Both the position numbers and the translations under genes were made by a program. 64,000 nucleotides of DNA from Vulcanimicrobiota bacterium (GTDB taxonomy: Bacteria; Vulcanimicrobiota; Xenobia; Xenobiales; JADMJV01), in contig JBFWNU010000001.1 of NCBI GenBank assembly GCA_050250895.1, positions 2,406,210-2,470,209 of the forward strand, read 5' to 3'. Each line of letters starts with the position of its first letter. Position 1 is the first letter of the stretch. The notes beneath the pieces are model-generated. The model saw nothing but the letters and a program-made list of their open reading frames with translations, did not search any database and had not been told where the DNA came from. This document shows, in pieces, positions 5,852-30,187 of the stretch.

Positions 5852-7138
5852 ATGGGGCTGCTGTGGCTGCTCGCCGGTGGCGTTCGGGCTGACGACTGGC
5901 ATTCCGTCGTTTTCGAGAGCAAACCCAACGGGGCCCAGATCGTGGACCTCTACGACAACGAGATTGGCCGCACGGGTGCCCCCTGCCGCTTGAATCTCGA
6001 TAATTTCAGCGAAGTGGTGGACCTCGAACTGCGTGCGCCCGGCTATCGGACTTTCGCCTTCTCGATGCGCAAGAGCAAGTTCTCGAAGGCCGAACGCTTG
6101 CCTGAAGAGGGCGCCTATGTGCTCGAGCCGGTCAGCCCCGGGGCCATGGTCGGGCTCTTCCTGCGGCGCTGGTGGTGGGTCTTGCTGGCCGGGGTGGCGG
6201 GGGCGACCCTGGCCGCGAGACGACATCTGACGGTGCGCGCCCGGGCGCGGCGGGAGCGGGCCCTCGAAACGCTCGAGGCCAGCGCCAACGGTTCTTTGGC
6301 CATGGCTCGGGTGGGAGGCTACGTCGTGGTCGACAAGTTGGGCGTAGGCGGCATGGCCAGCGTTTACCGGGCGGTGCCCGAGAAGGACCCCGAGCGAGGC
6401 CAGCCGGTGGCGATCAAGGTGCTTCACCGAGAGCTTTCCAGTGATCCAGACTATCGCGAACGGTTTTTGAGGGAAGTCAAGATCTGCGCGGGCCTCAACC
6501 ATCCCTCCATCGTGCGGCTGTATGACTGGGGCCAGTTTCAGCATGCGGGTCAGGAGCGGGATTACCTGGTCATGGAGATGGTCGAAGGTTGCTCTTTGCG
6601 CCAGAAGATGGCCTCCGAGGGCTTGCCGGCCAGTGAGGCGATGGCTTTCCTCGAGCCCATCTGCAAAGGGGTGCACTTCGCTAATTCGCGCGGAATTGTG
6701 CATCGCGACTTAAAACCCGAGAACATCATGGTCACCACGGCCGGGCGGGTCAAAGTGATGGACTTTGGTCTGGCCCGCAACCAGAACCTCGACCGCATCA
6801 CCAAGACCGGCGTCACCCTGGGCACCCCCGCCTATATGGCGCCCGAGCAGATTCGCGGTCAGGATCCCGAGGCCACCATCGACCAGTATGCGGTGGGTGT
6901 GCTCGCCTATGAACTGTTCACCGGTCGGCTACCCTTTCAGGACCAGGACCCTATCACGCTGATCTACCGTCATCTTGAAGAGGAGCCGCCGCCGCCTCGA
7001 CAGTTCAAACCAGACCTGGCCGAGAGCCTCAATCAGATCCTCTTGCAGATGCTCGAAAAAGATCCCGAGTTGCGTTTTCGCGACCTGGAGGAAGCCTTGC
7101 GAGCACTGCAGTCGGCAGTGGGGGTCGAAGTTGGTTGA
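5852..7138 (+). CDS. receptor-like Ser/Thr protein kinase (Hanks type): N-terminal signal peptide + PEGA-like extracytoplasmic domain, single TM, C-terminal kinase
   Basis: Signal peptide MGLLWLLAGGVRA; PEGA-like segment SKPNGAQIVDLYDNEIGRTGAPCRL; TM GLFLRRWWWVLLAGVAGATLAA. Kinase motifs: GVGGMASVY, AIK, HRDLKPEN, DFG, APE. Start chosen to leave room for divergent promoters; the 5732 ATG is the alternative. Confidence 0.75.
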   Translation: MGLLWLLAGGVRADDWHSVVFESKPNGAQIVDLYDNEIGRTGAPCRLNLDNFSEVVDLELRAPGYRTFAFSMRKSKFSKAERLPEEGAYVLEPVSPGAMVGLFLRRWWWVLLAGVAGATLAARRHLTVRARARRERALETLEASANGSLAMARVGGYVVVDKLGVGGMASVYRAVPEKDPERGQPVAIKVLHRELSSDPDYRERFLREVKICAGLNHPSIVRLYDWGQFQHAGQERDYLVMEMVEGCSLRQKMASEGLPASEAMAFLEPICKGVHFANSRGIVHRDLKPENIMVTTAGRVKVMDFGLARNQNLDRITKTGVTLGTPAYMAPEQIRGQDPEATIDQYAVGVLAYELFTGRLPFQDQDPITLIYRHLEEEPPPPRQFKPDLAESLNQILLQMLEKDPELRFRDLEEALRALQSAVGVEVG

Positions 7139-7139
7139 G

Positions 7140-8726
7140 ATGGCCGTCACCGACTCGGGCGCTCGTCGTCTTTTCGACAGCGCCTTGCGCTTTCTGGTCG
7201 AGGCCCTGAGAGCCGACCGAGCCCTGGTGCTCTATGGCGAGACCAACCTCGAAGTCAAGGCCGCCCATGGCTTCAATCCCCGCACCGCGCTGGTCGGCGG
7301 CCCCCTGAGCATGGCCTTGCTCGAGCGGGTCCGCAGCAGCGCCGCCCCGCTGATGTTGGCCGACGCCCGTCGAGATAAGACAGTGGGTGACCATTTGAGC
7401 GTTGAACTGTCGGGTCTGCGCTCGGTGGTGTGCGTGCCTTTGCTGGCGCCCCGGGGCGAGGTGGCGGGCCTGCTCTATGGCGACAGCGTCGAGCACAACA
7501 GCCTGTTCGGCAATGAGCAATTGAGCAAACTGGTCGATTTCGCCAGCCGGCTCGAACGGGCTCTCTTTTCGGGGCAGGCTCTCGAGTTGCCGGCCGCCCA
7601 AGCGCCAAAGCGCCGCAAGCGAGTCGAGGTGGCTCCTGCCTCGCCCGCCCAAGAGGTGGCGCGGCCCCTGGCGATGGGTGAGCCGTCCGGACTAGGGCTG
7701 CGCGACTCGAGCAACTTCTTCCGATCGTTGGGGCTGATGGTGCAGACCGGGCTACCGATTCATCGAGGCCTGGCTTTGTTGGCCGAACATCGCGACTTGC
7801 CGGCCCTGGCCGGCGTATCGGGCTTTCTACTCAACGACCTGCTCAAAGGCAAGAGCCTGTCGTCGAGCATGGAGCGACTGCCGGCTAGCTTTGCGCCCTT
7901 TGTGGTCCAGCTGGTTCGAGCGGGTGAGAATTCCGGCTCGCTGCCTCACGTGCTGGCCGCCCTGGCCGCCCACCAGGAGCGCTCGGAGCGGCTCACCCTG
8001 AAGCTTCGCAGCGCTCTCACCTATCCGGCCGCGGTGCTGGGGGTGACGCTAGTCCTGTTGGCGGTGGGCCCGCCTTATCTACTCAAGAGCCAGATTCAGC
8101 TGATTGAGGGTTCGGGGGTGGCCCTCGGTTGGCTGACCCAGGCTCTCATCCTGGCCTCGAAGATCGTGGTCTCGCCACTTTTCTGGGGGGTCGCCGTGGC
8201 CGGGCTGGTGGGGTTGGCGGTGGCCGCCCGGACCGGCTTGCGAAACCCCGACCAGCGGCGGCGTTTGGCCGTGATGGGGCTGAAGGTTCCCTTGCTCGGT
8301 TCAGTGTTGCGGTTGGCCGCCGTCAGCCGCTTCGCCAGCGCCCTATCGCTGCAACTCAAAGCGGGTGTGCTGTTGGCCGATGCCCTCGAACAGGCGGCCC
8401 AGGCGGCTGCTCACCCGCTCTTGCTCGAGCGGATGCCTGTGGTCTTGAGTCGCCTCAAGAACGGGGCCGGTCTGGCCGAATGTCTGGCGGAAGCCCAACT
8501 CTTTCCTCGCTCCTTCCTGGGTATCATCGAAGCGGCCGAGTCCACCGCCAGTGTGCCGGGCATGCTCGATTGGGTTCATCAGCACTACGAACTCGAAATC
8601 GATTCGGGACTATCAGCCCTAACGGCCGCCCTCGAGCCTCTGGTGTTGGGCCTGGTGGGCGGAGTGGTCGGCCTGACGGTGCTGGCCAGCATGGTGCCGG
8701 TGATCAAGATGCTGGAGGTGCTCTAG
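7140..8726 (+). CDS. GAF domain fused to a GspF/PilC-type (T2SS/T4P) inner-membrane platform protein
   Basis: Internal Met (MAVTDSGARR) 2 nt after the kinase stop. N-terminal GAF-like region (LVLYGETNLEVKAAHGF...VCVPLLAPRGEVAGLLYGDS). Two T2SSF repeats (FFRSLGLMVQTGLPIHRGLALL...GENSGSLPHVL; ...IIEAAESTASVPGMLDWV...) and the typical C-terminal TM (LVLGLVGGVVGLTVLASMVPVIKM). Confidence 0.75.
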   Translation: MAVTDSGARRLFDSALRFLVEALRADRALVLYGETNLEVKAAHGFNPRTALVGGPLSMALLERVRSSAAPLMLADARRDKTVGDHLSVELSGLRSVVCVPLLAPRGEVAGLLYGDSVEHNSLFGNEQLSKLVDFASRLERALFSGQALELPAAQAPKRRKRVEVAPASPAQEVARPLAMGEPSGLGLRDSSNFFRSLGLMVQTGLPIHRGLALLAEHRDLPALAGVSGFLLNDLLKGKSLSSSMERLPASFAPFVVQLVRAGENSGSLPHVLAALAAHQERSERLTLKLRSALTYPAAVLGVTLVLLAVGPPYLLKSQIQLIEGSGVALGWLTQALILASKIVVSPLFWGVAVAGLVGLAVAARTGLRNPDQRRRLAVMGLKVPLLGSVLRLAAVSRFASALSLQLKAGVLLADALEQAAQAAAHPLLLERMPVVLSRLKNGAGLAECLAEAQLFPRSFLGIIEAAESTASVPGMLDWVHQHYELEIDSGLSALTAALEPLVLGLVGGVVGLTVLASMVPVIKMLEVL

Positions 8727-16377: not shown

Positions 16378-16418
16378 GGCGCCGCGACTTCGCGACCTGC
16401 TATGGACGACCCCTGCCC

Positions 16419-16434
16419 GGTGATCGGTGTCACG
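16419..16434. promoter_or_regulatory. CRP/FNR-like palindromic site GGTGA-N6-TCACG, conserved upstream of cassette copies A and C
   Basis: ggtgatcggtgtcacg matches the TGTGA-N6-TCACA architecture at 4/5 + 4/5. An identical 16-mer occurs at 24228-24243. Confidence 0.4.
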
Positions 16435-16603
16435 CGGCAAAAGGAGTAGAGATAGCTACATGTCGCAGTCTAGATGTACCATTGGTTCGCAGAACGTGTA
16501 TTTTGTTGGTTGTATGGGTGTCCAAAGTTTGAAAAATAGTAAACAGAGGTTTTGTGTGGGGGGTAAAGAAGCACTGGGTTCGAGCATCCTTGGGGAGGTG
16601 GTC

Positions 16604-19600
16604 TTGGTTCGAGCGTCTCGTTTCTTTCTTCTTTTGCTGGGCTTGCTTTTGGTTGGCTGTGAATCCGGCCAACTGGTGGATGAGATCGAAAGAGGGCAAT
16701 CTCGGCCAATCTCCCATCGAAATCGTGTGTTGGCCGAATTGACTCTGCAAACCGAGAATGGCCCCTACAAGCTTGTGAAGGGGAGGGGGCTCATTCCGGC
16801 CGAAAATAGCCCGGTGCCCCAACCGCGTACGGGGGATGGCGTTCGCGCCAGAACCGGCGAGAGCATTCTGGCCGCGACTGAGCTGCCCCCGGAGTATTTT
16901 TTCGGAGCCCACTATCAGTTCGATGTGGACAAACGCAACTTCTTCATCGGCGAGGAGCCGGTAGGGACGGCCTGTGTTCGCTACAATAGCGAAGAATTCA
17001 ATAATCTTCCCCACAGCAGCGAAGCCTATCGCTTTGGCAACCTGGAGTTCGCTAGCCTGGGGGTGGCTGTCGGGCCTAACCAGTTTCCAGGCACCGCCTC
17101 GACCACCATGGTGGTGAGCACGCCCGCCGGGATTGAAGAGATCGAGATCCCTAAGATGGACGGCGACACAATCACCGTTTCACCACCAATCACCGTTCGG
17201 ATGGACTATGCCTACACCCCCATCCCCAATTCTAGCCTCTACTATGGGCGAACCGAGACGTTCGTCAACGGAAACTCGGTAGCGATCAGTTCTTCAAACT
17301 TCACCATTGGCGTGAGCGTCGAGCTGCCCTCGGTGCATGGGATCTATACTACCGAAAATCACGCCGAGCGACAGACCTATGCCAACGCGCCTTTCCAGCT
17401 TCAGGACAGCTTTGACGTGGGCAGTCAGGTCTTTGCTCGCAAGTTGGAGTTTGCAGATGACTTCACTCCGATGGAGTTCACGCCGGGCCAACCAGTGACG
17501 ATCACCAACAGCTTCCGCTGGGACTCCGGCCCAACTGATGTCGTCGATGCCCGGTGGGAGGTCATCGTCGAAGACACCCTGGAGAATCAGTTTACGAGAT
17601 TTCAAGAAGGCACCGGGACCGACATTTCGGCCACCTTCGACCTGTCTGATGTTTTGGCTCGCGGCCAGGTGCCCCGGCGTTACGTTCTCATCCCTGCCGG
17701 CAGCCCACTCGAGGCCAGTATCAAGCAGGAGCAGGCACGGTTGCGAGCTCGAGGCGAGGACATTCGCGCCCAGACGGACGTGATACCCCTGACCTATCGG
17801 GTCATCGCGAGCGCCGAGGCCTATCCTCGTAGCCGCGTCTTTCCGCTGGTCGGCTCGCAGTTTTATCAGGCACGCTACTACGCGGTGAATAGCCAGATCT
17901 CACCGGCCTTGCGCATCCGCGACATCAACATTGATCCCAACCCGTTCGAGCCCAGCCCCCCGGAGGTGGCCCCCGAAGACCGTCAGGTGGCCGTCATCTC
18001 GGCCTACGTCGACGCCAATGGCTTCGACGGTGGCTATGTGTTGGTCGAGCCTCGAATCTATGACCAGGCCGGCAACCTGGTGAAGACGTTCGAGGACCAG
18101 TATCCCATCGACTACGTCGAGTTGGAATGGGACGGCTATGACGATGAGGGAAACCCACTTGACCCGCAGGAGTTTCTGGTGGAGCTGCAAGCCCACGTCT
18201 GCGATTTCAGCGGACCGGCTCGCGAGATCTTGGCCGAGATTGCGCCCCAGACTCTGCAATTGGGTAGTTGTTCTCTGACGGGGGATGTCGCCCAGGCGCC
18301 CTTAGTGACCGGAGGGGCCCAGGGCGGTGAACTCAAGGTCTATGCAATCAACAAATTGATCGCCTGGGGTAAGAATCCGACCAGTGCTATCGTGACTAGA
18401 GCTCAGGAGGGCTTTCTGCGGGATGTCTATGCCGCTGGTCCTACGGCCCCGGGTGATCCCCAGCCCGCAAAGCTGAAATTGGAAGCCAGCAACCTCGGGC
18501 CGGTTGGAGGTGACGTTACTGTCGTCGCACGCGGGAATGTGAGCCAGGTGGACTCAGTAGCCGTCACACTAACAGACGACGACCACGACGGAACTTACAC
18601 GGGTGAGTTGTTGTTGACACCAGATTTCATTAAGGTCGGCGGGCCACTCACGGATGTGCAGGGTGAAGCGGGACGGATGACCTTCAGTGTCGGCGAGCGG
18701 CTCAACAATGAGGGTGGAGTTACCGCCGCGATCTTTGCCAACCTTCTCTCCGCCCTCGGTCCCGAATTCTACCCTTACCCCAAGCCCGCGATTTCTCTAG
18801 GCAAATTCGAAGAAGATTTGCTCGGGAGCCAGCTCACTCTCGCCAATGACGATGAGGCCACCGCCACGGCAAACAACCTGGCCAGTACTGGCTTTGAGGC
18901 GCTAACCCTAACGCTCAGGGTAGGAAGCGATGTGGTGGTTACAACCAAGGCCAAGGTTCGCCATCCCGCTGATGTTCTATTCTGGAATTTCCATGGTCTA
19001 CGCCACGGCTCACTCAGCCCCGAAAGCGAGATTGCCAAGAGAGAGAACCGGCTTCCTACGATACTCCTCACGCCCGAAGACTTTGTAGTGAAGCCGGTCG
19101 CAAGAACCGTAATGTTTGCCGCTTGCGATGTGCTGTGCCTGAACGACTACAACGGTGCGTGGCCCAACGAGTCGAACTTTGGCGGACGCCGCTGGTATGC
19201 CGCGATGGACACCCCGGGACACAACACAGTCTTGCTAGGATTCACGGCCCAGACAGGTGCAACTCTTACAACCTCTGAGGTCATCGAACTCTACGGAAAA
19301 AGGATTGATGACTATATCGCGGCGGGCGAAACGGACAGGAGAAAGATTCAGGCGCTGGCCTGGGTTAGGGCGAATCTCGAGGTTGGTCTCAACCTTCAAG
19401 CCGACGGCTCAACGGGTCCTGTGGATGCACTAAGAAGCCTGCAACTTCGTGCTTGCGCCTATGCAGCCGATAGCACGGGAGAGTACTTTTACTACATCCC
19501 TGTGCAGCATCGGCCCACTCAGGACCTTGCTCTGGTCTTGCAGAACGTCGAGACCACACCCGTGGTCAAAACTGCCGAGGGCATCTACAGAGTGCGCCGC

Positions 19601-19705
19601 GAGCATTGGGGTGAACCGGTCCTTTTCGACGTTAGGAGGCCAAAAGATGCACAACTTGTACTCGAAGTGGTGCGACACAACGATGGGACGGTGGAATTGC
19701 GATGA
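16604..19705 (+). CDS. large secreted lipoprotein (cassette A gene 1) with FlgD-Ig-like domain
   Basis: TTG start 5 nt after GGAGG. Lipoprotein signal MVRASRFFLLLLGLLLVGC (lipobox LVGC). FlgD-Ig-like block IRDINIDPNPFEPSP...YVLVEPRIYDQAGNLVKTFEDQYP...ELEWDGYDDEGNPLDPQEF. About 1033 aa; the start is inferred from conservation with copy C. Confidence 0.65.
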   Translation: MVRASRFFLLLLGLLLVGCESGQLVDEIERGQSRPISHRNRVLAELTLQTENGPYKLVKGRGLIPAENSPVPQPRTGDGVRARTGESILAATELPPEYFFGAHYQFDVDKRNFFIGEEPVGTACVRYNSEEFNNLPHSSEAYRFGNLEFASLGVAVGPNQFPGTASTTMVVSTPAGIEEIEIPKMDGDTITVSPPITVRMDYAYTPIPNSSLYYGRTETFVNGNSVAISSSNFTIGVSVELPSVHGIYTTENHAERQTYANAPFQLQDSFDVGSQVFARKLEFADDFTPMEFTPGQPVTITNSFRWDSGPTDVVDARWEVIVEDTLENQFTRFQEGTGTDISATFDLSDVLARGQVPRRYVLIPAGSPLEASIKQEQARLRARGEDIRAQTDVIPLTYRVIASAEAYPRSRVFPLVGSQFYQARYYAVNSQISPALRIRDINIDPNPFEPSPPEVAPEDRQVAVISAYVDANGFDGGYVLVEPRIYDQAGNLVKTFEDQYPIDYVELEWDGYDDEGNPLDPQEFLVELQAHVCDFSGPAREILAEIAPQTLQLGSCSLTGDVAQAPLVTGGAQGGELKVYAINKLIAWGKNPTSAIVTRAQEGFLRDVYAAGPTAPGDPQPAKLKLEASNLGPVGGDVTVVARGNVSQVDSVAVTLTDDDHDGTYTGELLLTPDFIKVGGPLTDVQGEAGRMTFSVGERLNNEGGVTAAIFANLLSALGPEFYPYPKPAISLGKFEEDLLGSQLTLANDDEATATANNLASTGFEALTLTLRVGSDVVVTTKAKVRHPADVLFWNFHGLRHGSLSPESEIAKRENRLPTILLTPEDFVVKPVARTVMFAACDVLCLNDYNGAWPNESNFGGRRWYAAMDTPGHNTVLLGFTAQTGATLTTSEVIELYGKRIDDYIAAGETDRRKIQALAWVRANLEVGLNLQADGSTGPVDALRSLQLRACAYAADSTGEYFYYIPVQHRPTQDLALVLQNVETTPVVKTAEGIYRVRREHWGEPVLFDVRRPKDAQLVLEVVRHNDGTVELR

Positions 19706-21555
19706 AAACGAAGATCGGGATGGTGACATTGACGCTTTGCCTTCTAAGCGGGGTCTGGGCTCAGGAGCCAGAGTTCCCGGCAGCGGACCCCGTGCGCCGC
19801 GCGATTCAGAGTTATGAACTACATGATTTGGATCGTGCCCTGGCCGAGTTCCTGGCCCTTGCAGAGAGTCATCGGGGAACTCCGGTGGGCTCAAATTGTC
19901 TCTTCTGGGCGTCAGATACTGCTCTACTCGCGGGGGACCAGGAGCAGGCACTGGCCATCCTTAACCGCATCACGCAAGAATACGCTGGCACTCACATGGA
20001 GCTTTCGGCAAGGCTGCGGCTCATTGAGCTTGTGCCTCCGAGCACTGGAGACGGAGCGACAGAAGCTTACGACGAACTCGCACAGCAGAATGGGGCACCT
20101 CCCCTTGCGGTGTTGATTGACCCGGCCCGGAAACTAGAGAACACGATCGCAATCCGGGCGTTGCCAGAAGAGTCGAGGAAGGGTCTCAGGTTGCTATACG
20201 TGACAGTCCTTGGCGAATTGAGTTTTCATCCCCCGCAGGAGGCCGCTGTCCTCGGGCAGGTTTTGCGGGGAGCGTTGGACCGTGATGGCGGCGCCGAGTT
20301 CTACGGCTCGTTGTATAACACCGCGAGGCGTTCACACGAGCGACGCCATCTCTGGTCGCCCACTCAGGAAGACTTTCAGAATCCCGTCGTGTCGCCTCTG
20401 AACCCTAGCGATGGTAGCACTGTCGCCCCAGGCGGAATGCTAGAGGCCCAGCTTTACATGGAAGACTTCTATGCTATGGGATTGGATCTGGCTACGCTGC
20501 GTGTTTCTCTGGACGGTCAGGATGTTACCGATTCTTCCACTTTCGAGTGTTCGGCCGGCCCGGAGTTCGTAGACGGGCAACCCTGGGAGGTGATTACCGT
20601 CCGCTCGCCCATGGCGAACCTATCGAACGGAACACACACGGCCACCGTTACCTGTCAGGTATACCTCTATCCGGGCCAGGGCCCGGGGCTGACGACGAAG
20701 ACCTGGTCGTTCACTATCGCCAATCAGGCCTCTGAGGCAGCGCTCTATCCATCGAAGGACTCGACCCTCCGACTCCGCGACCCCCATCTCAACGAGGGAG
20801 CCAACCCTAGACTCATCCTGGAGAAGATCCAGGGTAAGACCACTCACGCCCTGGTGGGCTTTGACCTGTCCCAACAGAACCTGACCGGCCTGACTTCGGC
20901 CAGCCTGGTCTTCACCATCGACCCCAGCGACTCTCCCACCGGCTGGGGCAATGGGCGCAACGTCCTCGCAGCCCCGATCTCGACCGGCTGGCTGGAGGGG
21001 AACGGCGTCGACTTCGGCGTGCCCAACGCGCAGAAGACCAGCGGGTCCGGCCCGGGCGTGACCTGGTTCAGTCCTGTCGATGAAGACATCAGCAACAACT
21101 ATGCCAACTCGGCCGTGAATTGGAACGGGGCCGGTGCGGCCAGCGGCCCTCCGACAGCCTTGGCGGTGCAAATCCATAACCATCAAACCGGAGAGGTCTC
21201 CTTCGATGTCACCCAGGATGTCCTCAACGGATCCTCGAGCTGGTTGGTGAGAAGAGAGGACGAGAACGTCGGCTCGCAAGTCCACTTCTACTCCAGGGAA
21301 GGTGGCGGAGCCTCAGCCGGCCCGCGCCTGGTCCTTCACTACGGTGCCTCGGCCAACAAACCCGCAGGAGACGCTCTGTTGGCCAGGGCCTGGGACACCC
21401 CGGTCGCGGTCCTTCGCAATCTCGCCGGGCTCGGGCTGTCGGGTGGCCCGATGACAAACTTGCTGATCCTGCAAGCCCGTTCGTCGGGCCTCGACATCCT
21501 GAGTGCGGGATTGCGCAGTCTGGTCGCCCGGCGCGAGATGGCCCTGCTCCTTTAG
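19702..21555 (+). CDS. secreted protein with TPR-like N-terminal region and DNRLRE-like C-terminal domain (cassette A gene 2)
   Basis: Signal peptide MKTKIGMVTLTLCLLSGVWAQ; ATGA overlap with gene 1. C-terminal pattern SKDSTLRLRDPHLNEGANPRLIL...ALVGFDLS...SASLVFTID...GWGNGRNV fits the DNRLRE/CBM96-like signature (D-x-T-L...N-x-G...L-x-L...F-D-L-S...A-S-L). Confidence 0.7.
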   Translation: MKTKIGMVTLTLCLLSGVWAQEPEFPAADPVRRAIQSYELHDLDRALAEFLALAESHRGTPVGSNCLFWASDTALLAGDQEQALAILNRITQEYAGTHMELSARLRLIELVPPSTGDGATEAYDELAQQNGAPPLAVLIDPARKLENTIAIRALPEESRKGLRLLYVTVLGELSFHPPQEAAVLGQVLRGALDRDGGAEFYGSLYNTARRSHERRHLWSPTQEDFQNPVVSPLNPSDGSTVAPGGMLEAQLYMEDFYAMGLDLATLRVSLDGQDVTDSSTFECSAGPEFVDGQPWEVITVRSPMANLSNGTHTATVTCQVYLYPGQGPGLTTKTWSFTIANQASEAALYPSKDSTLRLRDPHLNEGANPRLILEKIQGKTTHALVGFDLSQQNLTGLTSASLVFTIDPSDSPTGWGNGRNVLAAPISTGWLEGNGVDFGVPNAQKTSGSGPGVTWFSPVDEDISNNYANSAVNWNGAGAASGPPTALAVQIHNHQTGEVSFDVTQDVLNGSSSWLVRREDENVGSQVHFYSREGGGASAGPRLVLHYGASANKPAGDALLARAWDTPVAVLRNLAGLGLSGGPMTNLLILQARSSGLDILSAGLRSLVARREMALLL

Positions 21556-21597
21556 AAGCCCGAGCAACCCTGACAGGGCTCGAACAAGCCCTCGCAG

Positions 21598-21739
21598 AAC
21601 CGGTTCAAATGGCACTCAAAGCCGTTCCGCCTCGCATGGATGCCCAGGGGCGCCCTTACCTGGTCTGAGGACCTCTCCGACGAGATGTTCCGCTCCATCC
21701 TGCGCGGCGACTGCGGCCCCGAGCTTCAGGCCCTCTACA
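21598..21739 (+). pseudogene. remnant of the small AbiEii-partner gene (homolog of 29266..29574), frameshifted and truncated by the duplication junction
   Basis: atggcactcaaagccgttccgcctcgcatggatgcccaggggcgcccttac... is identical to 29266 onward except for a 5-nt deletion (ccttacctggtctga vs ccttacttcctctggtctga). Homology ends at ...ctctaca (21739). Confidence 0.5.
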
Positions 21740-22330
21740 GTTTGCCGCTTGCGATGTGCTGTGCCTGAACGACTACAACGGTGCGTGGCCCAACGAGTCG
21801 AACTTTGGCGGACGCCGCTGGTATGCCGCGATGGACACCCCGGGACACAACACAGTCTTGCTAGGATTCACGGCCCAGACAGGTGCAACTCTTACAACTT
21901 CTGAGGTCATCGAACGCTACGGGAAATGGATTGACGACTATATTGCGGCGGGCGAAACGGCAGGAGAAAGATTCAGGCGCTGGCCTGGGTTAGGGCGAAC
22001 CTCGAGGTTGGTCTCAACCTTCAACCCGACGGCTCAACGGGCCCTGTGGATGCACTAAGAAGCCTGCAACTTCGCGCTTGCGCTTATGCAGCCGACAGCA
22101 CGGGAGAGTATTTCTACTACATCCCTGTGAAACACGAGCCTACCAAAGACCTGGACCTGATTCTCCAGAATGTGGAGACTACTCCGAGAGTCAAGACCGC
22201 CGAGGGCATCTATAGAGTGAGCCGCGAACATTGGGGTGACCCGGTCCTTTTCGACCTTAGGAGGCCCAAAGATGCGCAACTTGTACTCGAGGTGGTGCGA
22301 TACGACGATGGGACGGTGGAATTGCGATGA
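21740..22330 (+). pseudogene. 3' fragment of a cassette gene-1 copy (duplicate of 19114-19705), frameshifted
   Basis: First ~180 nt identical to 19114 onward, then ~90% identity. A 1-nt deletion (aacggcaggag vs aacggacaggag) splits it into two ORFs (21756..22058, 22046..22330). No 5' part or signal peptide. Confidence 0.7.
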
Positions 22331-24078
22331 AAACAAAGATCGGGATGGTGACATTGACGCTTTGCCTTCTAAGCGTGGCCTGGGCCCAGGAGCCAGAGTT
22401 TCCAGAAACAGACCCTGTGCGCCACGCTATTCAGAGTTACGAGTTGCATCAGTGGGATCGTGCCCTGGCCGAGTTCCTGGCCCTCGCAGAGAGTCATCGG
22501 GGAACGCCGGAGGGCTCAAACTGTCTCTTTTGGGCGTCAGATGTCGCTTTGCTCGCGGGGGACGAGGCGCAATCGTTGGCTATCCTCAACCGCATCGCGC
22601 AAGAATACGCCAGCACCAACATGGGACTCTTGGCGAGGCTCCGTCTCATTGAGCGGACATCCCCGAACTCCAGAGAAGAAAGGGTCGCTGCCTACGACCA
22701 ACTCGCCCAAGCGAAAGGCGCGCCTTCTCTCGCCATCTTGATCGACCCGGCCCGGAAAGTGGAAAACATGATGAAAATCCGGTCATTGCCAAGGGAATCC
22801 AGAAACGGTCTCAGGATGCTCTACGCGAGAGTCGTTGACGAATTGGGTTTTCACCCCCCGCAGGAGGCCGCTGTCCTCGGGCAGGTCTTGCGGGGAGCGT
22901 TGGACCGTGATGGCGGCGCCGAGTTCTATGTCTCGTTGTATGACGCGGCGAGGAACTCACACGAGTTGAGGGGTCTCTGGTCGCCCACTCAGGAAGACTT
23001 TCAGAATCCCGTCGTGGCGCCACTAAACCCTAGCGATGGTAGCACTGTCGCCCCAGGCGGAATGCTAGAGGCACAGCTTTACATGGAAGACTTCTATGCT
23101 ATGGGATTGGATCTGGCTACGCTGCGTGTTTCTCTGGACGGTCAGGATGTCACCAATTCTTCGACTTTCGAGTGTTCGGCCGGCCCGGAGTTCGTAGACG
23201 GGCAACCCTGGGAGGTGGTTACCGTTCGCTCGCCCATGGCGAACCTGTCGAACGGAACACACACGGCCACCGTTACCTGTCAGGTATACCTCTATCCAGG
23301 CCAGGGCCCCGGCATCACAACGAAGACATGGTCGTTCACTATCGCCAATCAGGCCTCTGAGGCAGCGCTCTATCCATCGAAGGACTCGACCCTCCGCCTA
23401 CGCGACCCCCATCTCAACGAAGGCGCGAACCCTCGGCTCATCCTGGAGAAGATCCAGGGCAAGACCACTCGTGCTCTGGTGGGCTTTGACATGTCCCAAC
23501 AGAATTTGACCGGCCTGACTTCGGCCAGCCTGGTCCTCACCGTCGACCCCAGCGACTCTCCCACCGGCTGGGGCAACGGGCGTAACGTCCTCGCGGCTCC
23601 GATTTCCACCGGCTGGCTGGAGGGGAACGGCGTCGACTTCGGCGTGCCCAACGCGCAGAAGACCAGCGGGTCCGGCCCGGGCGTGACCTGGTTCAGTCCT
23701 GTCGATGAAGACATCAGCAACAACTATGCCAACTCGGCCGTGAATTGGAACGGGGCCGGTGCGGCCAGCGGCCCTCCGACAGCCTTGGCGGTGCAAATCC
23801 ATAACCATCAAACCGGAGAGGTCTCCTTCGATGTCACCCAGGATGTCCTCAACGGATCCTCGAGCTGGTTGGTGAGAAGAGAGGACGAGAACGTCGGCTC
23901 GCAAGTCCACTTCTACTCCAGGGAAGGTGGCGGAGCCTCAGCCGGCCCGCGCCTGGTCCTTCACTACGGCGCCTCGGCCAACAAACCCGCAAAAGACGCT
24001 CTGTTGGCCAGGGCCTGGGACACCCCGGCCGCGGTCCTTCGCAATCTTGCCGGGCTCGGGGGACTGGTGGCCCGATGA
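22327..24078 (+). CDS. cassette B gene 2: secreted TPR-like/DNRLRE-like protein, C-terminally truncated by a frameshift
   Basis: N-terminus ~85% identical to 19702..21555; C-terminal domain nearly identical. A 1-nt deletion near 24058 (ctcgggggactgg vs ctcgggctgtcgggtgg) gives an early stop; the homologous stop is at 24176-24178. Confidence 0.65.
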   Translation: MKTKIGMVTLTLCLLSVAWAQEPEFPETDPVRHAIQSYELHQWDRALAEFLALAESHRGTPEGSNCLFWASDVALLAGDEAQSLAILNRIAQEYASTNMGLLARLRLIERTSPNSREERVAAYDQLAQAKGAPSLAILIDPARKVENMMKIRSLPRESRNGLRMLYARVVDELGFHPPQEAAVLGQVLRGALDRDGGAEFYVSLYDAARNSHELRGLWSPTQEDFQNPVVAPLNPSDGSTVAPGGMLEAQLYMEDFYAMGLDLATLRVSLDGQDVTNSSTFECSAGPEFVDGQPWEVVTVRSPMANLSNGTHTATVTCQVYLYPGQGPGITTKTWSFTIANQASEAALYPSKDSTLRLRDPHLNEGANPRLILEKIQGKTTRALVGFDMSQQNLTGLTSASLVLTVDPSDSPTGWGNGRNVLAAPISTGWLEGNGVDFGVPNAQKTSGSGPGVTWFSPVDEDISNNYANSAVNWNGAGAASGPPTALAVQIHNHQTGEVSFDVTQDVLNGSSSWLVRREDENVGSQVHFYSREGGGASAGPRLVLHYGASANKPAKDALLARAWDTPAAVLRNLAGLGGLVAR

Positions 24079-24227
24079 CAACCTTGCTGATCCTGCAAGC
24101 CCGTTCTTCGGGCCTCGACATCCTGAGTGCGGGATTGCGCAGTCTGGTCGCCCGGCGCGAGATGGCCCTGCTCCTTTAGGATTCTCGGATTTGACAATCC
24201 GGCCGAACGCCGGGCTGCACGATGCCC

Positions 24228-24243
24228 GGTGATCGGTGTCACG
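24228..24243. promoter_or_regulatory. second copy of CRP/FNR-like site ggtgatcggtgtcacg
   Basis: Identical 16-mer to 16419-16434, within a ~30-nt conserved block (cccggtgatcggtgtcacgcggcaaaa). Confidence 0.4.
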
Positions 24244-24412
24244 CGGCAAAATGAGTAGCGCCAGCTACATGTCGTAGCCTGATTGTTCTTTCGGTTTGCA
24301 AGTCGCATCTTCTGGTAGTTTGAGGGGTGGCAAAAGTTTGAAAAATAGTAAATAGAGGTTTGGTGGGGGGGGTAAAGAAGCACTGGGTTCGAGCAATCCT
24401 TGGGGAGGTGGT

Positions 24413-27341
24413 CTTGGTTCGAGCGTCTTGGAGTCGATCCGCCGTGTTAGGTTTCTTGGCTGGCTGGTTTGCCATAGGCCTTGTCGCTTGCGAGAGTTCG
24501 AGGGTGCTCGACCAAGTGGAAACACCCGCACCAGGTCGAACACCTCGAACAGGGGCCGAGTCCTGGCCGAGTTGGCCCTCAGGACCGACGAGGGAGAGTT
24601 CAAAGTCGTGAAAGGCGCCGGCAAGGTTGCCCTGGAGAAGCAGCCGCGCGAGGAGAAAGTCGCGACCAGGGGCGTGTTGGACAACCCGGGCTATTCTTTC
24701 TTCGGGCACCGGCAATACGGCGACTTCGAGTTTTTTCGCCTCGACGAGGACAACCCGGTAGGCTATCTTCCTTACTCCAGCAGCGATGCGGTTTCGAGCC
24801 GGCTGCCAGGGATTTCCGGCGGCGGCTACCGATATCGCATGATGGGATTCGTTAGCCTGGGCGTGAGCGGCGATCCTCATGTACCCGGCCAATCTTCGGT
24901 CGAACTGGTCGTCTCGACACCCGACGGCATCGATGAGGTCGAGGTGCCGACCCTCGATGGCGACACGGTCACGGTGGCTCCGCCCATTACCCTGCGCCGG
25001 GTTCAAACCGTGACCAGCACCGGTGGAGTGGTGTCTCAGCGGGTCGAGACCTTCGTCAACGGAGTCTCGCTCGGGGTCGACTCGTCGAGTTATCTGGAAA
25101 TTGGGTTGAAAATTCCGTCGGTGTCCGGCGACTACCAGGTGAGCACTCACGGCCAGCGCTCGATCAACTATGACGAGCCGGTCAACGATAGCTACGATCT
25201 GGCCTGGACCATCCCGGTTCGCAAACTGCAGTTGGCCGAGAGCCTGGGGCCGGTCGAGGCGACCCCGGGACAGCCCATCATCATCAGCAATCGCATCACC
25301 TGGGACAGTCCGGGCGAGGTTGTGGATGCCAAATGGACTGTGACCCTCAGTGATGTCTTCGACGAGAACTATGAATTCTACGAGGGCACAGGAGAGATGT
25401 CTCGGCCACCTTTGACACCTCGAGTTTTCAGGCCAGAGGGACGACGCCGCGACGTTACCTGCTGATTCCCGCCGGTAGCTCGCTGGTGGACATGCTCAAG
25501 GCCAAGCAGGCCGAACTTCTTGCTCGGGGCGAAGACATCCGGGCCCAGACCGACCTGGTTCCTTTGGTCTACGAAATCTTCGCCAGCGCCGAAGCCTTCC
25601 CGCAGCAGGAAGTCTTCCCGAACTCTGGGGTGCAATTCTATCAGGCTCGCTACTTTCTGCTCAGCGAGTCGCAGGCCGAGCCGGCCATCCGCATTCGCGA
25701 TCTGAGCGTCGACCCCAATCCCTTCGAGCCCAGCCCGGTGGCCCCCGAGGACCGTCAGGTGGCGACGATCTCGGCCTATGTCGACGCGGTGGGCTTCGAC
25801 GGCGGCTATGTGGTGGTCGAGCCTCGCATTTACGACCAATCGGGAAACCTGGTGCGAAGGTTCGAAGACCAGTATCCCATCGACTACTTTGAGCTGGAGT
25901 GGGACGGTTATGACGATGAGGGCAATCGGGTCGAGCCTCAGGAGATCACGATTCAACTGAGTGCCCACGTCTGTGACTTCGCGGGCCTGGCTCGTGAGAT
26001 CGCGGCAAAGTTATCGCCTGAGATCTTAGCACAGGGTTGTTCCCTCCCGTCAGACGCCTTTCTGGTGGCTCAAGTTGGAACGCCACTAAATGGTGTGATT
26101 CAGGTACGTTCTGGAACTAACCTGGTTGCTCAAAGCTTTCATGGTACTCCGAGTTCGGCCGATCTGGCCAGGTTGAGAACAGTCTTTCCCGACGGGCGCA
26201 ACGGCGTCAACAACACGTTAGAGATATCCGCTTCCGGGTTCACCGGGAATCCGCCATCGAGCATTGAGATTGTTCTCGAAGGGTCTGCGAGCAGCACTTC
26301 ATCGGCCCCTATGATTCTAAATCAGGCCAACAACTATACCACAAGTTTTACGCTGACACCTGGCCTGATCAGAACCGGCCAGCTTGGCCCTAGCATCACG
26401 TTTTCGGACTCGGTGTTGAGCGTGACGGGCGGAGCGCAGCTGTTGTTCGAAGGGTCGCTCATGGGAAGCGGCGTTCCGTATCCGGGCCCAGACCCGACCT
26501 CTTTGGGAACCTACAAGGATGGGTCCTCGGCCTCAGAGGCAGAAAATACCGCGAGCAACGTTTCCAGCCTGGGGTATGAAACCGTAGAGATTAGAGGGAC
26601 GGCGGTTCATTTTCAAGCATTGCAAGGCTTAAGGTGAGACACCCGTCCGAGGTCTTTTACTTCGTGCAACATGGATCCGGAACCGGAGAGATCGATTTGG
26701 GGGGTAACCAATCCTTGAACCCGGGTCAGAATATTACCCGTTCGGATTGCACCTCTTTGAAAACTCTGATATTCACAGCCTGTCGGGGCTTGGTGCTCAA
26801 TGATTATAACAATCTATATGAAAACCATCGCCCATTCGCGGATATGGCGACCCGAAGGCAATTGGACTTCGGGGGTCCCAAATGGTACAACATCACAGGT
26901 GCATCCGACGCGTTTGCCCCGTTTTCCCCAACCGAACGGAGGACAGTGCTTCTGGGATTCAACCACGTTGCACCCGCTAAGCTGGCCGCGGATATTCTCG
27001 ATGTCTATCGACTTGCCTTGGGAGATTTGCGAGGAAAGATTAACCAGGGCGACCTAACTGTCAAGAATCTTGAACCGCTGGCCTGGATGAAGGCCAACCT
27101 AGCGGTTCTCCAGGGCGCGAGTGGCTCAGAACTGGCGAGAGGCTTGTGCCTGAACGCGTGCGCTTACGATACTGAGTATTACTATTATATACCGTTTGAT
27201 CGATTCGACCCGACCGAAGACCCGTTTCGTTCAACGCGCGAGGTTCATCGTGTTCCGCGTGGAGACTGGAACACAGATCTCACTCGAGTTGAGTGGATTA
27301 CGACGCCGAAGCGGGTCGGCAGGATGGTTACCATACCGTAG
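24413..27341 (+). pseudogene. cassette C gene 1: large lipoprotein homolog of 16604..19705, disrupted by at least three frameshifts
   Basis: Signal peptide/lipobox frame (VLGFLAGWFAIGLVAC) differs from the body frame (24428..25465). A 1-nt deletion near 25395 (gagatgtctcggccacc vs gaccgacatttcggccacc). A -1 shift at 26634/26637. The three ORFs together are ~55-70% identical to copy A. Confidence 0.6.
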
Positions 27342-27349
27342 GAGGATAC

Positions 27350-29212
27350 GTGCAAGGATTGAGATTGATTTTGATAATTCTCTTACTCTCCATCTCAGCT
27401 ATTGCTCAGCATGTAGGTGACTACCAGGAATTTGTGGCCACGCCGGAGTTTCTGGAGGCTGACCGCCTGGCGGGATTAGGTCAATTGGATGAAGCGCTCA
27501 CGATTTTTGAGAATATCGCGACACAGAACCCCCGTACGACTTTAGGCGCTCGAAGTCTTCTCGCGGCGATAGCTTTGAGAACGAGCCGCGCCAATAATGA
27601 CCGTTTGATCAACCGACTAATTACGGAGTTCAGTGGCTCCCGCTACGAGATCATCGGCAAACTCGTCCAGACGGCCGCTGGATTTACCGATGATGATGAA
27701 GCGCGCATAGCCGCACAAGATGCATTGGCTCAGAGTTTTGGAGGGCCCGGACTCTCCTCGATTCTCAACTCCGAAGACCGGAACACTCTTGTAGCAGAAT
27801 TGCGCGCGCTACCGTTTGAGACTCGCATGGGGTTAGCGCCTGTCTATTACTCTAACTTTGGAGGTCTTCGCGGCCTCGGTAGAGTCGATGACGCCATCAG
27901 TCTCGCGAGGTTCAATCAGGATGCTTATGCTGATGTAGAGGAAACCCTCGAGCACTCATTTAGAGGAGATCTACGTTATGCTCTCATGGTCAAGCAATAT
28001 GGGGGAGGCGTCTCAATAGAAGCACAACCGTCGTCAGACCCGGTGGTCGTGCCGACTTCGCCCAGCCCAAACCAAGTGCTGACAAGCCTTTCGACGCTTG
28101 ATTTCTCGATAAACGGGGGGGATTTTCGTCAACCGGGTGTGGACTTAAACAGCCTCGTCGTGACTCTGGATGGTGAGCCGCTTACAAGTTTGTCATTCCG
28201 CTTTGAGAGTGGGATTCTCGCTGAGAATGAAGTTTACGAGCGCCTTCTCGTCTCGCTGACTGTCCCGGACCTGTCACCTGGCCAGCATCAGGTGACGGTC
28301 AAAGCCAGCGTCAGGGGATACCCTGGGACAGGAGCCGGAACCACCACAGCCTCTTGGAGCTTCGAAATAGCCAGCGCCCAATCCACCCAGACTCTACCAG
28401 TCACGAAAGACTCCACCCTCCGCCTACGCGACCAACATCTCAACGAGGGAGCCAACCCGCGGCTCATCCTGGAGAAGATCCAGGGCAAGACCACTCACGC
28501 CCTGGTGGGCTTTGACCTGTCCCAACAGAATTTGACCGGCCTGACTTCGGCCAGCCTGGTCCTCACCGTCGACCCCAGCGACTCTCCCACCGGCTGGGGC
28601 AACGGGCGTAACGTCCTCGCGGCTCCGATTTCCACCGGCTGGCTGGAGGGGAACGGCGTCGACTTCGGCGTGCCCAACGCGCAGAAGACCAGCGGGTCCG
28701 GCCCGGGCGTGACCTGGTTCAGTCCTGTCGATGAAGACATCAGCAACAACTATGCCAACTCGGCCGTGAATTGGAACGGGGCCGGTGCGGCCAGTGGGCC
28801 ACAGACCGCCTTGCCGGTGCAGCTCCACAACCATCAGGCCGGAGAGGTCTCGTTTGATGTCACCCAGGATATCCTCAGCGGGTCCTCCAGCTGGTTGGTG
28901 AGACGAGAGGACGAGAATGTCGGCTCGCAGGTCCACTTCTACTCCAAGGAAGGCGGCGGAGCCTCAGCCGGCCCGCGCCTGGTCCTTCACTACGGCGCCT
29001 CGGCCAACAAACCCGCAAAAGACGCTCTGTTGGCCAGGGCCTGGGACACCCCGGTCGCGGTCCTTCGCAATCTCGCCGGGCTCGGGCTGTCGGGTGGCCC
29101 GATGACAAATTTGCTGATGAGCACCCTGCAAGCCCGATCGTCGGGCCTCGACGTCCTGAGTGCGGGGTTGCGCAGTCTGGTCGCCCGCCGCGAGATGGCC
29201 CTGCTCCTCTAG
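27350..29212 (+). CDS. cassette C gene 2: secreted protein with distinct helical N-terminal region and DNRLRE-like C-terminal domain
   Basis: GTG start after AGGAGG. Signal peptide VQGLRLILIILLLSISAIAQ. C-terminal ~280 aa nearly identical at nucleotide level to copies A and B (STLRLRDQHLNEGANPRLIL...LVGFDLS...). Confidence 0.65.
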   Translation: MQGLRLILIILLLSISAIAQHVGDYQEFVATPEFLEADRLAGLGQLDEALTIFENIATQNPRTTLGARSLLAAIALRTSRANNDRLINRLITEFSGSRYEIIGKLVQTAAGFTDDDEARIAAQDALAQSFGGPGLSSILNSEDRNTLVAELRALPFETRMGLAPVYYSNFGGLRGLGRVDDAISLARFNQDAYADVEETLEHSFRGDLRYALMVKQYGGGVSIEAQPSSDPVVVPTSPSPNQVLTSLSTLDFSINGGDFRQPGVDLNSLVVTLDGEPLTSLSFRFESGILAENEVYERLLVSLTVPDLSPGQHQVTVKASVRGYPGTGAGTTTASWSFEIASAQSTQTLPVTKDSTLRLRDQHLNEGANPRLILEKIQGKTTHALVGFDLSQQNLTGLTSASLVLTVDPSDSPTGWGNGRNVLAAPISTGWLEGNGVDFGVPNAQKTSGSGPGVTWFSPVDEDISNNYANSAVNWNGAGAASGPQTALPVQLHNHQAGEVSFDVTQDILSGSSSWLVRREDENVGSQVHFYSKEGGGASAGPRLVLHYGASANKPAKDALLARAWDTPVAVLRNLAGLGLSGGPMTNLLMSTLQARSSGLDVLSAGLRSLVARREMALLL

Positions 29213-29265
29213 AAGCCCGAGCAACCCTGACAGGGCTCGAACAAGCCCTCGCAGAACCGTTTCAA

Positions 29266-29574
29266 ATGGCACTCAAAGCCGTTCCGCCTCGCATGGATGC
29301 CCAGGGGCGCCCTTACTTCCTCTGGTCTGAGGACCTCTCCGACGAGATGTTCCGCTCCATCCTGCGCGGCGACCGCGGCCCCGAGCTTCAGGCCCTCTAC
29401 ACTGGAAGGCTGCTGCGGGAAGCCAGAATGGCCGAAGTCTGGTGGTACCTCAAACCTCAGGATATAGCCGACCGCTGGCCTGAGGTGGCGCGTCATCTCG
29501 GCCGGGCTCGCCAGTTCTGGCATGAGCTACTGGAGGCCTGGCGTGAAGCCGGACGCGTTTCCTGGCAACCTTAG
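29266..29574 (+). CDS. small protein, putative partner/antitoxin of the downstream AbiEii-family nucleotidyltransferase
   Basis: 102-aa ORF overlapping the downstream NTase gene by ~50 nt. A disrupted copy sits behind cassette A. Function inferred only from gene context. Confidence 0.45.
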   Translation: MALKAVPPRMDAQGRPYFLWSEDLSDEMFRSILRGDRGPELQALYTGRLLREARMAEVWWYLKPQDIADRWPEVARHLGRARQFWHELLEAWREAGRVSWQP

Positions 29575-30187
29575 CCCGCTCCAGGCCGAACTTCTGAAGG
29601 CCTTTCAGGGTGAGGGGTTCTTTCTGACGGGGGGAAGCGCCCTGGTTGGGTTCTACGGACATGACCGGGTGACCCGAGACCTGGACCTCTTCACTCGCAG
29701 CCACGAGGCCTTCGAAGAAGGTCCGGGTTGGCTGGGCGCAGCTGTCGAGGCCCTCGGAGCCAGCCTGGATCCGATCAGGACCTATCCGGCCTTCCGCCGC
29801 TATCAGGTATGCCGCGGCGAGGAGCAGACTCTGGTGGACCTGGTCTTCGAGCCGGTTCCGCCTGTCTATCCGCCGCGACCCATTCCAGGCTCCCGCCTGG
29901 CCCTTGACCTGCCCGACGAGATTGCGGTCAACAAACTGTGCGCTCTGGTTGGTCGGGGAGAACCTCGCGATCTGGCCGACCTGCTATTCTTGGATCGGTT
30001 CGGCGTGGATCTCGGGCGGGCTCTAGAGTTGGCCTCACACAAGGACGCAGGAGTCGGCCCTGATACCCTGTTGCTGGTGCTGCCCGCCGTTCCGCTTTCG
30101 GGCGACCCGGAGAAATTGGCGGCCCTGCGTGATTTTCGAGACGACTGGATCGGTCGCCTCAGGCTAGAAGTTCTACCGCCGCAGTGA
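29522..30187 (+). CDS. nucleotidyltransferase, AbiEii/AbiGii (DUF1814) toxin family
   Basis: FFLTGGSALVGFYGHDRVTRDLDLF matches the AbiEii N-terminal motif (GG[ST]AL...YG..R.[ST].DLD[FL]); 221 aa. Confidence 0.65.
   Translation: MSYWRPGVKPDAFPGNLSPLQAELLKAFQGEGFFLTGGSALVGFYGHDRVTRDLDLFTRSHEAFEEGPGWLGAAVEALGASLDPIRTYPAFRRYQVCRGEEQTLVDLVFEPVPPVYPPRPIPGSRLALDLPDEIAVNKLCALVGRGEPRDLADLLFLDRFGVDLGRALELASHKDAGVGPDTLLLVLPAVPLSGDPEKLAALRDFRDDWIGRLRLEVLPPQ

Follow-up and report, generated by a model that had tools for sequence, protein, structure and literature searches.

The DNA analyzed here is a stretch of 64,000 nucleotides (nt), referred to as the window, from an assembly of Vulcanimicrobiota bacterium (GCA_050250895.1; contig JBFWNU010000001.1, positions 2,406,210 to 2,470,209 of the forward strand), a metagenome-assembled genome (MAG) in which three paralogous genes, gene-2A, gene-2B and gene-2C (hereinafter A, B and C), share a nearly identical 3' block. 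An inspection of the letters alone, the sequence-only reading, had reported this block in 19702..21555, 22327..24078 and 27350..29212 and attributed it to gene conversion. Both a BLAST search of the window against itself (self-BLAST) and alignments recover the block, and the example sequence quoted for it is present; the similarity among the gene-2 copies proved to be larger and more structured than the 3' block alone.

A tandem array of gene-1/gene-2 cassettes

Three gene-1/gene-2 cassettes for secreted proteins or lipoproteins lie in tandem at the locus; A, B and C are on the same strand, as established by the listing of open reading frames (ORFs) and their translation. The features of the array are as follows.

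16414..16618, + strand: leader upstream of gene-1A, with the promoter/5' untranslated region (UTR)/Shine-Dalgarno region and the first codons (self-BLAST, base-level alignment)
16604..19705, + strand: gene-1A, the only intact gene-1, encoding a predicted lipoprotein of ~1030 amino acids (aa) with a TTG start, MVRASRFFLLLLGLLLVGC
19702..21555, + strand: gene-2A, 617 aa, intact
20753..21555, + strand: copy A of the 3' block, coding for the C-terminal module and tail
21556..21739, + strand: tail after A, a dead copy of the C flank at 29213-29401
21739..21740, no strand: duplication junction, nonhomologous (base-level alignment)
21740..22330, + strand: delta-gene-1, a gene-1A copy that lacks the 5' part and retains the last ~590 nt, 91.5% identical
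22327..24078, + strand: gene-2B, 583 aa, with a premature stop
23378..24179, + strand: copy B of the 3' block, including the out-of-frame remnant 24079-24179
24223..24428, + strand: leader copy upstream of gene-1C (self-BLAST, base-level alignment)
24414..27341, + strand: gene-1C, a divergent paralog of gene-1A (31-48% aa identity) in four reading-frame segments (tblastn)
27350..29212, + strand: gene-2C, intact, 620 aa from GTG 27350; the NCBI start lies three codons later (617 aa)
28404..29212, + strand: copy C of the 3' block (alignment, self-BLAST)
29213..29401, + strand: original downstream flank of C, copied behind A and leading into a small ORF, 29266-29574

The order of elements is leader, gene-1A, gene-2A, a 184-nt tail, a gene-1 remnant, gene-2B, leader, gene-1C, gene-2C, tail, the small ORF and a gene of the AbiEii family. 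Self-BLAST aligns 19114-21555 with 21740-24179 at 90.7% identity, revealing a 2.44-kb tandem duplication with a period of ~2625 nt that takes in the last ~590 nt of the gene upstream of gene-2A. This upstream gene, gene-1A, the stop of which overlaps the start of gene-2A by 4 nt, is annotated at NCBI as a 1081-aa hypothetical protein (AB7S38_30240) and has very few relatives, with a weak FlgD-Ig-like match. The gene-1 start regions (16414-16618 vs. 24223-24428) are 84% identical and an internal part (17627-18229 vs. 25402-26001) is 72% identical in the same search. Within the leader pair, the last ~100 nt (AAAGTTTGAAAAATAGTAAA...GGGGAGGTGGTC-TTG) are ~95% identical and the left boundary is sharp, and the coding sequence that follows is only ~39% identical at the aa level; the pair is either a conserved promoter/5' UTR or a second homogenized tract.

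The 3' block measures ~803-809 nt, somewhat less than the ~850 nt given originally. When aligned at the nucleotide level (A 20753-21555, B 23378-24179, C 28404-29212), it is 96.0% identical between A and B, 93.65% between A and C, and 94.1% between B and C; self-BLAST reports 93.6% for 20753-21739 against 28404-29401, and 93.3% for 23378-24179 against 28404-29212. Inside the block, 162 nt (about 20983-21143) are invariant across all three copies, and a core of ~340 nt is perfectly identical in A and B. A 40-mer taken from the three-way-identical core occurs exactly three times in the window and was absent from shuffled sequences.

The homogenized tract is not delimited by the domain at its 3' end, because homology between A and C passes the stop codons and runs for another 184-189 nt (21556-21739 against 29213-29401), ending exactly at the duplication junction. 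At this junction (21739|21740), the C-type flank (...CTCTACA) is joined to position 19114 of gene-1A (GTTTGCC...), with no microhomology visible. The copy behind A contains no more than the first ~130 nt of the small ORF (start 29266), broken by a 5-nt deletion. Because the flank continues into the small ORF only in the context of C, the 3' end of A must derive from a C-type context, and the direction of this transfer is thereby known. The homology of B to A and C, by comparison, ends exactly at the stop-equivalent position 24179 and is followed by 43 unique bases and then by the leader of cassette C. Part of the resemblance among the copies is therefore segmental duplication with a nonhomologous junction, in addition to conversion. 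Two histories fit this layout: either a 2.6-kb tandem duplication of one cassette followed by insertion of cassette C through exchange within the module, or duplication of a two-cassette array over 10.3 kb, with a subsequent deletion between modules. Both require later conversion, because the divergence is uneven.

Cassette A is the only intact one. In addition to its 5' truncation, delta-gene-1 is frameshifted by a 1-nt indel near 21960. In gene-2B, a net 1-nt deletion near 24061 leads to an early stop at 24078, such that the protein ends in ...GLGGLVAR and has lost ~35 tail residues, although the DNA homology continues to 24179. Gene-1C begins with a good lipoprotein signal at TTG 24414 (MVRASWSRSAVLGFLAGWFAIGLVAC), followed by three further frames, implying at least three frameshifts, and NCBI calls three separate genes here in both available assemblies; it is a probable pseudogene beside the intact gene-2C. 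The truncation of B and the split of gene-1C are not one-off sequencing errors, because both NCBI assemblies show them, and B and gene-1C are decaying copies.

Silent sites, untranslated DNA and the mosaic of the 3' block

Contrary to a uniform divergence along the genes, sliding-window identity and synonymous divergence (dS) both reveal a break at the block. The dS values and the ratio of nonsynonymous to synonymous divergence (omega) were calculated by the Nei-Gojobori method in 50-codon windows, and differences at four-fold degenerate sites were compared between codons 1-250 and the module. For A/C and B/C, dS is saturated over codons 1-350 and drops to 0-0.44 in the block, where omega is 0.05-0.14. 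Between A and C, 26 of 31 four-fold sites differ in the front part (0.84), against 17 of 111 in the module (0.15; Fisher p 1.7e-12); for B/C, the counts are 27 of 34 (0.79) and 12 of 113 (p 4e-14), and for A/B, 27 of 102 (0.26) and 11 of 116 (0.09; p 0.001). In comparisons of the module between lineages, 0.49-0.76 of the four-fold sites differ. Protein constraint fails to explain the identity within the window, because the four-fold sites of the module diverge between lineages under the same constraint.

Untranslated DNA tells the same story. The tail located after the stop codon of A matches the flank of C at 182 of 184 positions (98.9%), apart from one 5-nt indel, and the out-of-frame remnant of B (24079-24179) matches A at 99 of 101 positions. 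Because neutral sites and the noncoding flank are equally identical, selection is not the maker of the identity. The low omega does indicate that purifying selection on the module is real, but it is separate from the cause of the identity; the data allow for the selection on the domain that the sequence-only reading had proposed but do not need it to explain the sameness of the copies.

The distribution of the differences within the block is distinctly patchy. Among its 65 variable sites, A is the odd copy at 18, B at 14 and C at 33, and these patterns are clustered into 14 runs, compared with 41 expected (0 of 100,000 permutations gave as few; p<1e-5). An invariant core of 162 nt was reached in 0 of 20,000 simulations under a uniform distribution of sites. 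The block starts with a short mixed stretch, continues with a tract in which B is odd (about 20799-20866) and one in which A is odd and B equals C (20880-20985), and then enters the invariant core. This is followed by a tract in which A equals B and C is ~14% different (21144-21304), by short tracts in which A and then B are odd, the latter holding the frameshift of B, and by a block end in which C is odd, with a 6-nt indel. A single bifurcating history cannot give alternating nearest pairs, and hence several conversion tracts are required. The three 3' blocks have thus undergone repeated nonreciprocal exchange of DNA, with differing donor and recipient pairs, and the array has experienced at least one illegitimate duplication.

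The front halves behave differently. The front half of C had been described as unrelated to those of A and B, and at the nucleotide level its identity to A is indeed at chance level; yet the two are homologous, aligning end to end with the same order of parts at 27% aa identity (E 3e-25). Sequence comparison thus identifies A and C as old full-length paralogs. For A and B, the reported 85% identity is close to the measured 86.5% nt and 84% aa. This resemblance is itself a mosaic, with nt identity ranging from 67 to 97% along the front half of gene-2B and dS in successive 50-codon windows amounting to 0.44, 0.59, 0.96, 0.25, 0.30, 0.09 and 0.19. Delta-gene-1 shows a comparable unevenness relative to gene-1A, with 97% identity over the first 221 nt and 87% thereafter.

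Several candidate causes of these patterns were considered and rejected. Diversifying selection on the A/B front halves is not indicated, with omega of 0.07-0.38 in all 50-codon windows over codons 1-350 and none above 1; the sole value near 1 (1.14, codons 551-600) derives from four substitutions at the frameshifted tail of B. A diversity-generating retroelement or other targeted hypermutation does not agree with the many synonymous differences (dS of ~1 in the A/B front), and no inverted repeats were reported, with no specific search made for a template repeat or a reverse transcriptase. GC content at third codon positions (GC3) changes stepwise at the module boundary: it is 0.73-0.82 in the module across genomes and 0.80-0.82 in the window copies, and in the window it is 0.55-0.67 in the front halves and 0.67 in gene-1A, with a median of 0.77 for the neighboring genes. 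The step recurs in other lineages (front 0.42-0.60, module 0.73-0.82) and is missing from the single Xenobia copy, L012 (0.53 vs. 0.52). GC-biased gene conversion is not supported as its source, given that the GC3 of the module is typical of the genome (window median 0.77; 0.73-0.75 in the genome of MAG JBAZCT), whereas the fronts and gene-1 are atypically low; a GC3 excess in the module is hinted at only by the contig of MAG JBJHCR.

The proteins annotated at NCBI begin at Met246 for A (372 aa) and at Met164 for B (420 aa), although in the window both ORFs are open from the signal peptide. Upstream of these NCBI starts, omega is 0.16-0.38. The short starts are probably truncations by the gene caller in a compositionally atypical region, the alternative being a sequence difference from the deposited assemblies.

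The DNRLRE/CBM96 module in the window and in other lineages

The gene-2A protein is predicted to consist of a signal peptide, TPR-like helical repeats (~30-215), an immunoglobulin (Ig)-like sandwich (~229-339), a DNRLRE/CBM96 module (~351-555) and a helical tail. The assignment of the front half draws on a weak TPR_16 match, weak YbgF/BamD-type TPR matches in a relative, and a full-length AlphaFold model of low confidence (predicted local distance difference test [pLDDT] 58.8), which served for the coarse architecture only. No catalytic domain is recognizable. For the module, the resemblance to DNRLRE/CBM96-type β-sandwiches proposed by the sequence-only reading is supported by profiles as well as by predicted structure. 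The NCBIfam model DNRLRE_dom (NF033679; cutoff 34 bits) scores 38.0 for B, above the cutoff, and 33.5 for A and 32.3 for C, just below it; the best stretch in the window modules covers profile positions 69-163 of 164, and relatives match the full profile, two of them above the cutoff (L012, 45.4 bits; P0012, 37.7 bits). A direct scan of the window modules with the Pfam model of CBM96 (PF24517) gave no match even at E<=10; the model is found on many homologs of the module profile (E 1e-73 to 1e-81; P0015-P0017 and many others), with 80.4 bits for P0016.

AlphaFold, supplied with a 94-sequence alignment, predicts a β-sandwich over module residues 1-205 with pLDDT >90, followed by the helical tail at low confidence. 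The top Foldseek matches of this model in the PDB are 8wab (E 1e-7, target TM 0.72) and 7vbo (E 1.4e-6, target TM 0.64), both with a probability of 1.00, and the next are BMP9/TGF-β prodomains. The family profile also matches the sequence of 8wab_A, a "DNRLRE domain-containing protein" (E 4.4e-7). The profile matches and the predicted fold identify the module as a DNRLRE/CBM96 β-sandwich, and no other part of the family is as conserved across phyla. The 7VBO structure is that of TM6-N4, an alginate-binding module from Defluviitalea phaphyphila Dp0100 and the founder of CBM96, with which the window module shares the fold and the structural neighbors; BMP9/activin prodomains are the structural neighbors described for 7VBO itself, for which the ligand-contact residues are listed (PMC9971899). 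With 8WAB, the chondroitin sulfate-binding module of a chondroitinase, it shares the fold and profile-level homology. Sequence identity to either is only 14-16%, and in the window the module sits on a TPR-like and Ig-like front and is followed by a helical tail, with no recognizable catalytic domain of a carbohydrate-active enzyme. The two characterized members bind acidic glycans through a basic groove; the module of the window is a putative carbohydrate-binding module.

A search with the module profile yielded 109 homologs, and a scan of one genome per species yielded 11 loci. The JBAZCT and JBAYRN MAGs represent one species (100% identity of L002 and L014 in the part of the module that was compared) with at least six distinct copies, and MAG JBJHCR has three. 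At the nt level, the modules of the window genome are 93-96% identical to one another, those of JBAZCT/JBAYRN 83-93% and those of JBJHCR 88-91%, compared with 56-73% between lineages. Front halves show no such structure: aa identity is 27-28% for A/C and B/C (84% for A/B), 21-27% or no significant match within JBAZCT/JBAYRN, and 25% within JBJHCR for L006/L008, the remaining pairs there being alignable over no more than the shared linker or ~70 aa, as against 22-33% between lineages. The fronts are thus as divergent within genomes as between genomes, whereas the module clusters by genome in three independent lineages. In each lineage, the homology among copies again starts at or just upstream of a KDSTL/KDTT motif, and some copies outside the window carry a different front-half type on the same linker and module. 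In the JBAZCT/JBAYRN and JBJHCR genomes, the copies are dispersed among housekeeping genes. Genome-wise homogenization of the module is what concerted evolution classically leaves behind, and it characterizes the family, not the window locus alone.

Some observations on relatives and neighbors stand apart from this comparison. One dispersed copy with a different front-half type (L002, 1-521, MAG GCA_041654815.1) adjoins a fragment of an IS91-family transposase (Zn_Tnp_IS91), a possible route for the dispersal of copies. Two family members, L011 and L013, come from MAGs labeled "uncultured Burkholderiales"; the module of L013 is 79-81% nt identical to the JBJHCR copies, which suggests mis-binning or mislabeling rather than true Burkholderiales genes. 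Loci L001, L006, L008 and L012 have a longer C-terminal extension that ends in a conserved ...NP(V/I)L...AYR(S/G)WL, and the window copies (region 21380-21555, 29030-29212) all end ~35-40 residues earlier, without that motif. The C-terminal tail of the family could be an unrecognized sorting or anchoring signal; as a known sorting signal it was rejected, with no match to any Pfam or NCBIfam model.

Directly downstream of the array, the small ORF 29266-29574, which encodes 102 aa and matches no family, extends over the start of a gene for an AbiEii-family nucleotidyltransferase toxin (29522-30187; Pfam E 5.9e-14), and, judging from their sequence and arrangement, the two probably form a type IV toxin-antitoxin pair. 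Other repeats lie near the start of the window, namely a ~195-nt pair (228-421 and 1081-1274; 76% identical, ~850 nt apart) and overlapping direct repeats in 1355-1786 with offsets of ~83 and ~168 nt and 77-96% identity, which suggest a tandem array; neither has any relation to the gene-2 block. The ORF at 6975-8726 encodes an unusual fusion of GAF (E 1e-7) and type II secretion/type IV pilus platform protein F repeats (T2SSF, E 8e-41). An Rfam scan of 14-32 kb found nothing relevant, including in the conserved leader, and in a promoter and terminator scan the number of sites did not exceed that in shuffled sequence, so that the scan has no bearing on which cassettes are expressed.

Explanations for the shared block and known systems

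The integrity of the assembly bears directly on any explanation. Two MAG assemblies in NCBI, both "Vulcanimicrobiota bacterium" (locus tags AB7S38_ and AB7J86_), agree fully on the protein sequences of A, B and C. In AB7J86_, the whole array lies on one contig of 3.95 Mb. The fragmented AB7S38_ has an 88-kb contig with gene-1A (_30240), A (_30235), one more gene (_30230) and B (_30225), the latter cut by the contig end at residue ~431, and a 46.5-kb contig that begins inside B at residue ~507 (_39120) and runs through three genes to C (_39140). It links gene-1A, A, delta-gene-1 and B and, separately, the 3' end of B, gene-1C and C. The break falls inside the three-way-identical core, the position expected for a genuine repeat in a short-read graph.

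Taken together, the collapse of silent-site divergence at the module boundary, the mosaic site patterns, the homogenized untranslated DNA and the clustering of the module by genome in three lineages lead us to conclude that the 3' blocks were, with high probability, homogenized by repeated gene conversion within a tandem array that also underwent segmental duplication, in agreement with the original proposal. An account with one or two recent segmental duplications or domain shuffling events, which placed the same module and flank behind different fronts, would ascribe the similarity to youth, with no ongoing conversion. It draws on the near-perfect copy of the C flank behind A, with its nonhomologous end, on the position of A and B within a tandem duplicate, and on the different front-half types found on the same linker and module elsewhere. 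Such an account nevertheless predicts a single tree, whereas the nearest pair switches (A=C, B=C, A=B and so on) in significantly clustered tracts; A and C are almost identical in the tail and yet ~14% different in 21144-21304, where A equals B; and, being full-length paralogs of the same architecture, A and C do not carry a newly fused module. We consider it unlikely. Strong purifying selection on the protein domain, with no DNA exchange, has the low omega of the block and the conservation of the module across phyla in its favor, but it is refuted by the 98-99% identity of the noncoding tail and the out-of-frame remnant and by the four-fold differences of 0.09-0.15 in the module, against ~0.8 in the fronts and 0.49-0.76 between lineages; we assign it almost no probability.

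An artefact, be it a block collapsed or consensus-polished in the MAG or an array that is a chimera of strain variants, is very unlikely. In favor of it, the sequence derives from a MAG, the break in the fragmented sister assembly lies within the identical core, many family copies in other MAGs lie at contig ends, and a scan of JGI metagenome contigs for the core 40-mer gave 0 matches, leaving no independent metagenome contig with it. Against it, the copies differ in their flanks and each shows separate clustered diagnostic differences within the block, the two assemblies agree on the three proteins and on the gene order on either side of the break, a chimera would not make the delta-gene-1 and tail junctions, and the dispersed loci of other MAGs are homogenized within the genome too, at 83-93% rather than 100%. 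Certain points do weigh against homogenization by conversion or limit its reach. With three sequences, donors and directions of the tracts are unassignable, except for the tail, which moved from the C context to A. Consensus polishing may have sharpened the identical cores (the three-copy core of 162 nt and the ~340 nt common to A and B), and the two NCBI assemblies may stem from related samples and would then not be fully independent. Lineage-specific clustering could also come from independent recent duplications or fusions of the module, and the mosaic evidence that specifically requires conversion comes from the window only. Further events, by conversion or through imported divergent alleles, are needed to account for the uneven divergence of the A/B front halves (dS 0.09-0.96), and that the module fits a lineage-specific partner is something we infer.

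Under the conversion scenario, the process is well-known concerted evolution, with no new mechanism. The direct repeats would exchange DNA by ordinary RecA-type intragenomic homologous recombination, their identical runs of 160-340 nt offering ample substrate, and unequal exchange would have made the tandem duplicate B. The module and tail presumably must fit a lineage-specific partner, either an envelope or matrix polysaccharide or an anchoring or secretion partner, such that converted copies would stay functional and conversion would be tolerated or favored, and the TPR-Ig front halves would be free to diverge and might carry the diversified function. The pattern thus points to the module and tail as the constant, partner-fitting part of these proteins, possibly for anchoring to a self-glycan or matrix. 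To our knowledge, the CBM96 family has so far been known only from polysaccharide lyases; here, paralogous secreted proteins of Vulcanimicrobiota, a phylum in which no cultured models have been well studied, share a DNRLRE/CBM96 module that undergoes concerted evolution in three lineages. On the practical side, the module is a repeat that breaks short-read assemblies, gene callers truncate such genes, and phylogenies or orthology calls based on the module will track the genome rather than the history of the gene.

A bolder proposal, which we regard as improbable, is that the array is a recombinational system of surface-protein variation, with an intact expression cassette (leader, gene-1A and gene-2A), degraded archival cassettes B and C, and the leader and the 3' block serving as homology anchors for swapping of TPR-Ig fronts or gene-1. 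If so, all variants would be held at one lineage-specific envelope glycan by the constant module, and import or a separate evolutionary regime would account for the atypically low GC3 of the variable parts. Silent-cassette systems of the pilE/pilS, vls or sap type have conserved anchors on both sides of the variable segment in all cassettes, and a single expression site served by promoterless donors. Here, the 3' anchor is clear (93-96%), whereas the 5' leader of ~205 nt is found in cassettes A and C only (84%), B having the 3' end of gene-1 instead. In the sap homologs of Campylobacter fetus and in slpA/slpB of Lactobacillus, a constant block encoding the anchoring domain is the recombination substrate in clustered paralogs, the rest being variable, and expression from a single promoter is switched by DNA inversion or cassette replacement. 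The window array likewise combines a constant domain-coding block, common to clustered paralogs, with a variable remainder; unlike in the sap and slp systems, all copies point in one direction, and two of the cassettes look degraded, not maintained.

The closest parallel is provided by the outer-membrane protein paralogs of Helicobacter pylori, and the process also agrees with what is generally known of gene conversion in bacterial multigene families. In babA/babB and homA/homB, the 3' segments cluster within a strain while other segments diverge, and the homogenization is ascribed to intragenomic gene conversion, the segment being thought structurally essential (PMC2795765, citing Pride & Blaser 2002 and Santoyo & Romero 2005). 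In the Vulcanimicrobiota array, the homogenized part encodes a predicted soluble DNRLRE/CBM96 sandwich and helical tail instead of an outer-membrane β-barrel, the copies are either in tandem, as in the window, or dispersed, as in the other lineages, and the organism is an uncultured, presumably free-living bacterium, with no sign of host-driven antigenic variation. For all these differences, the process is the same in both cases, with a 3' segment homogenized among paralogs and the rest of the gene diverged.

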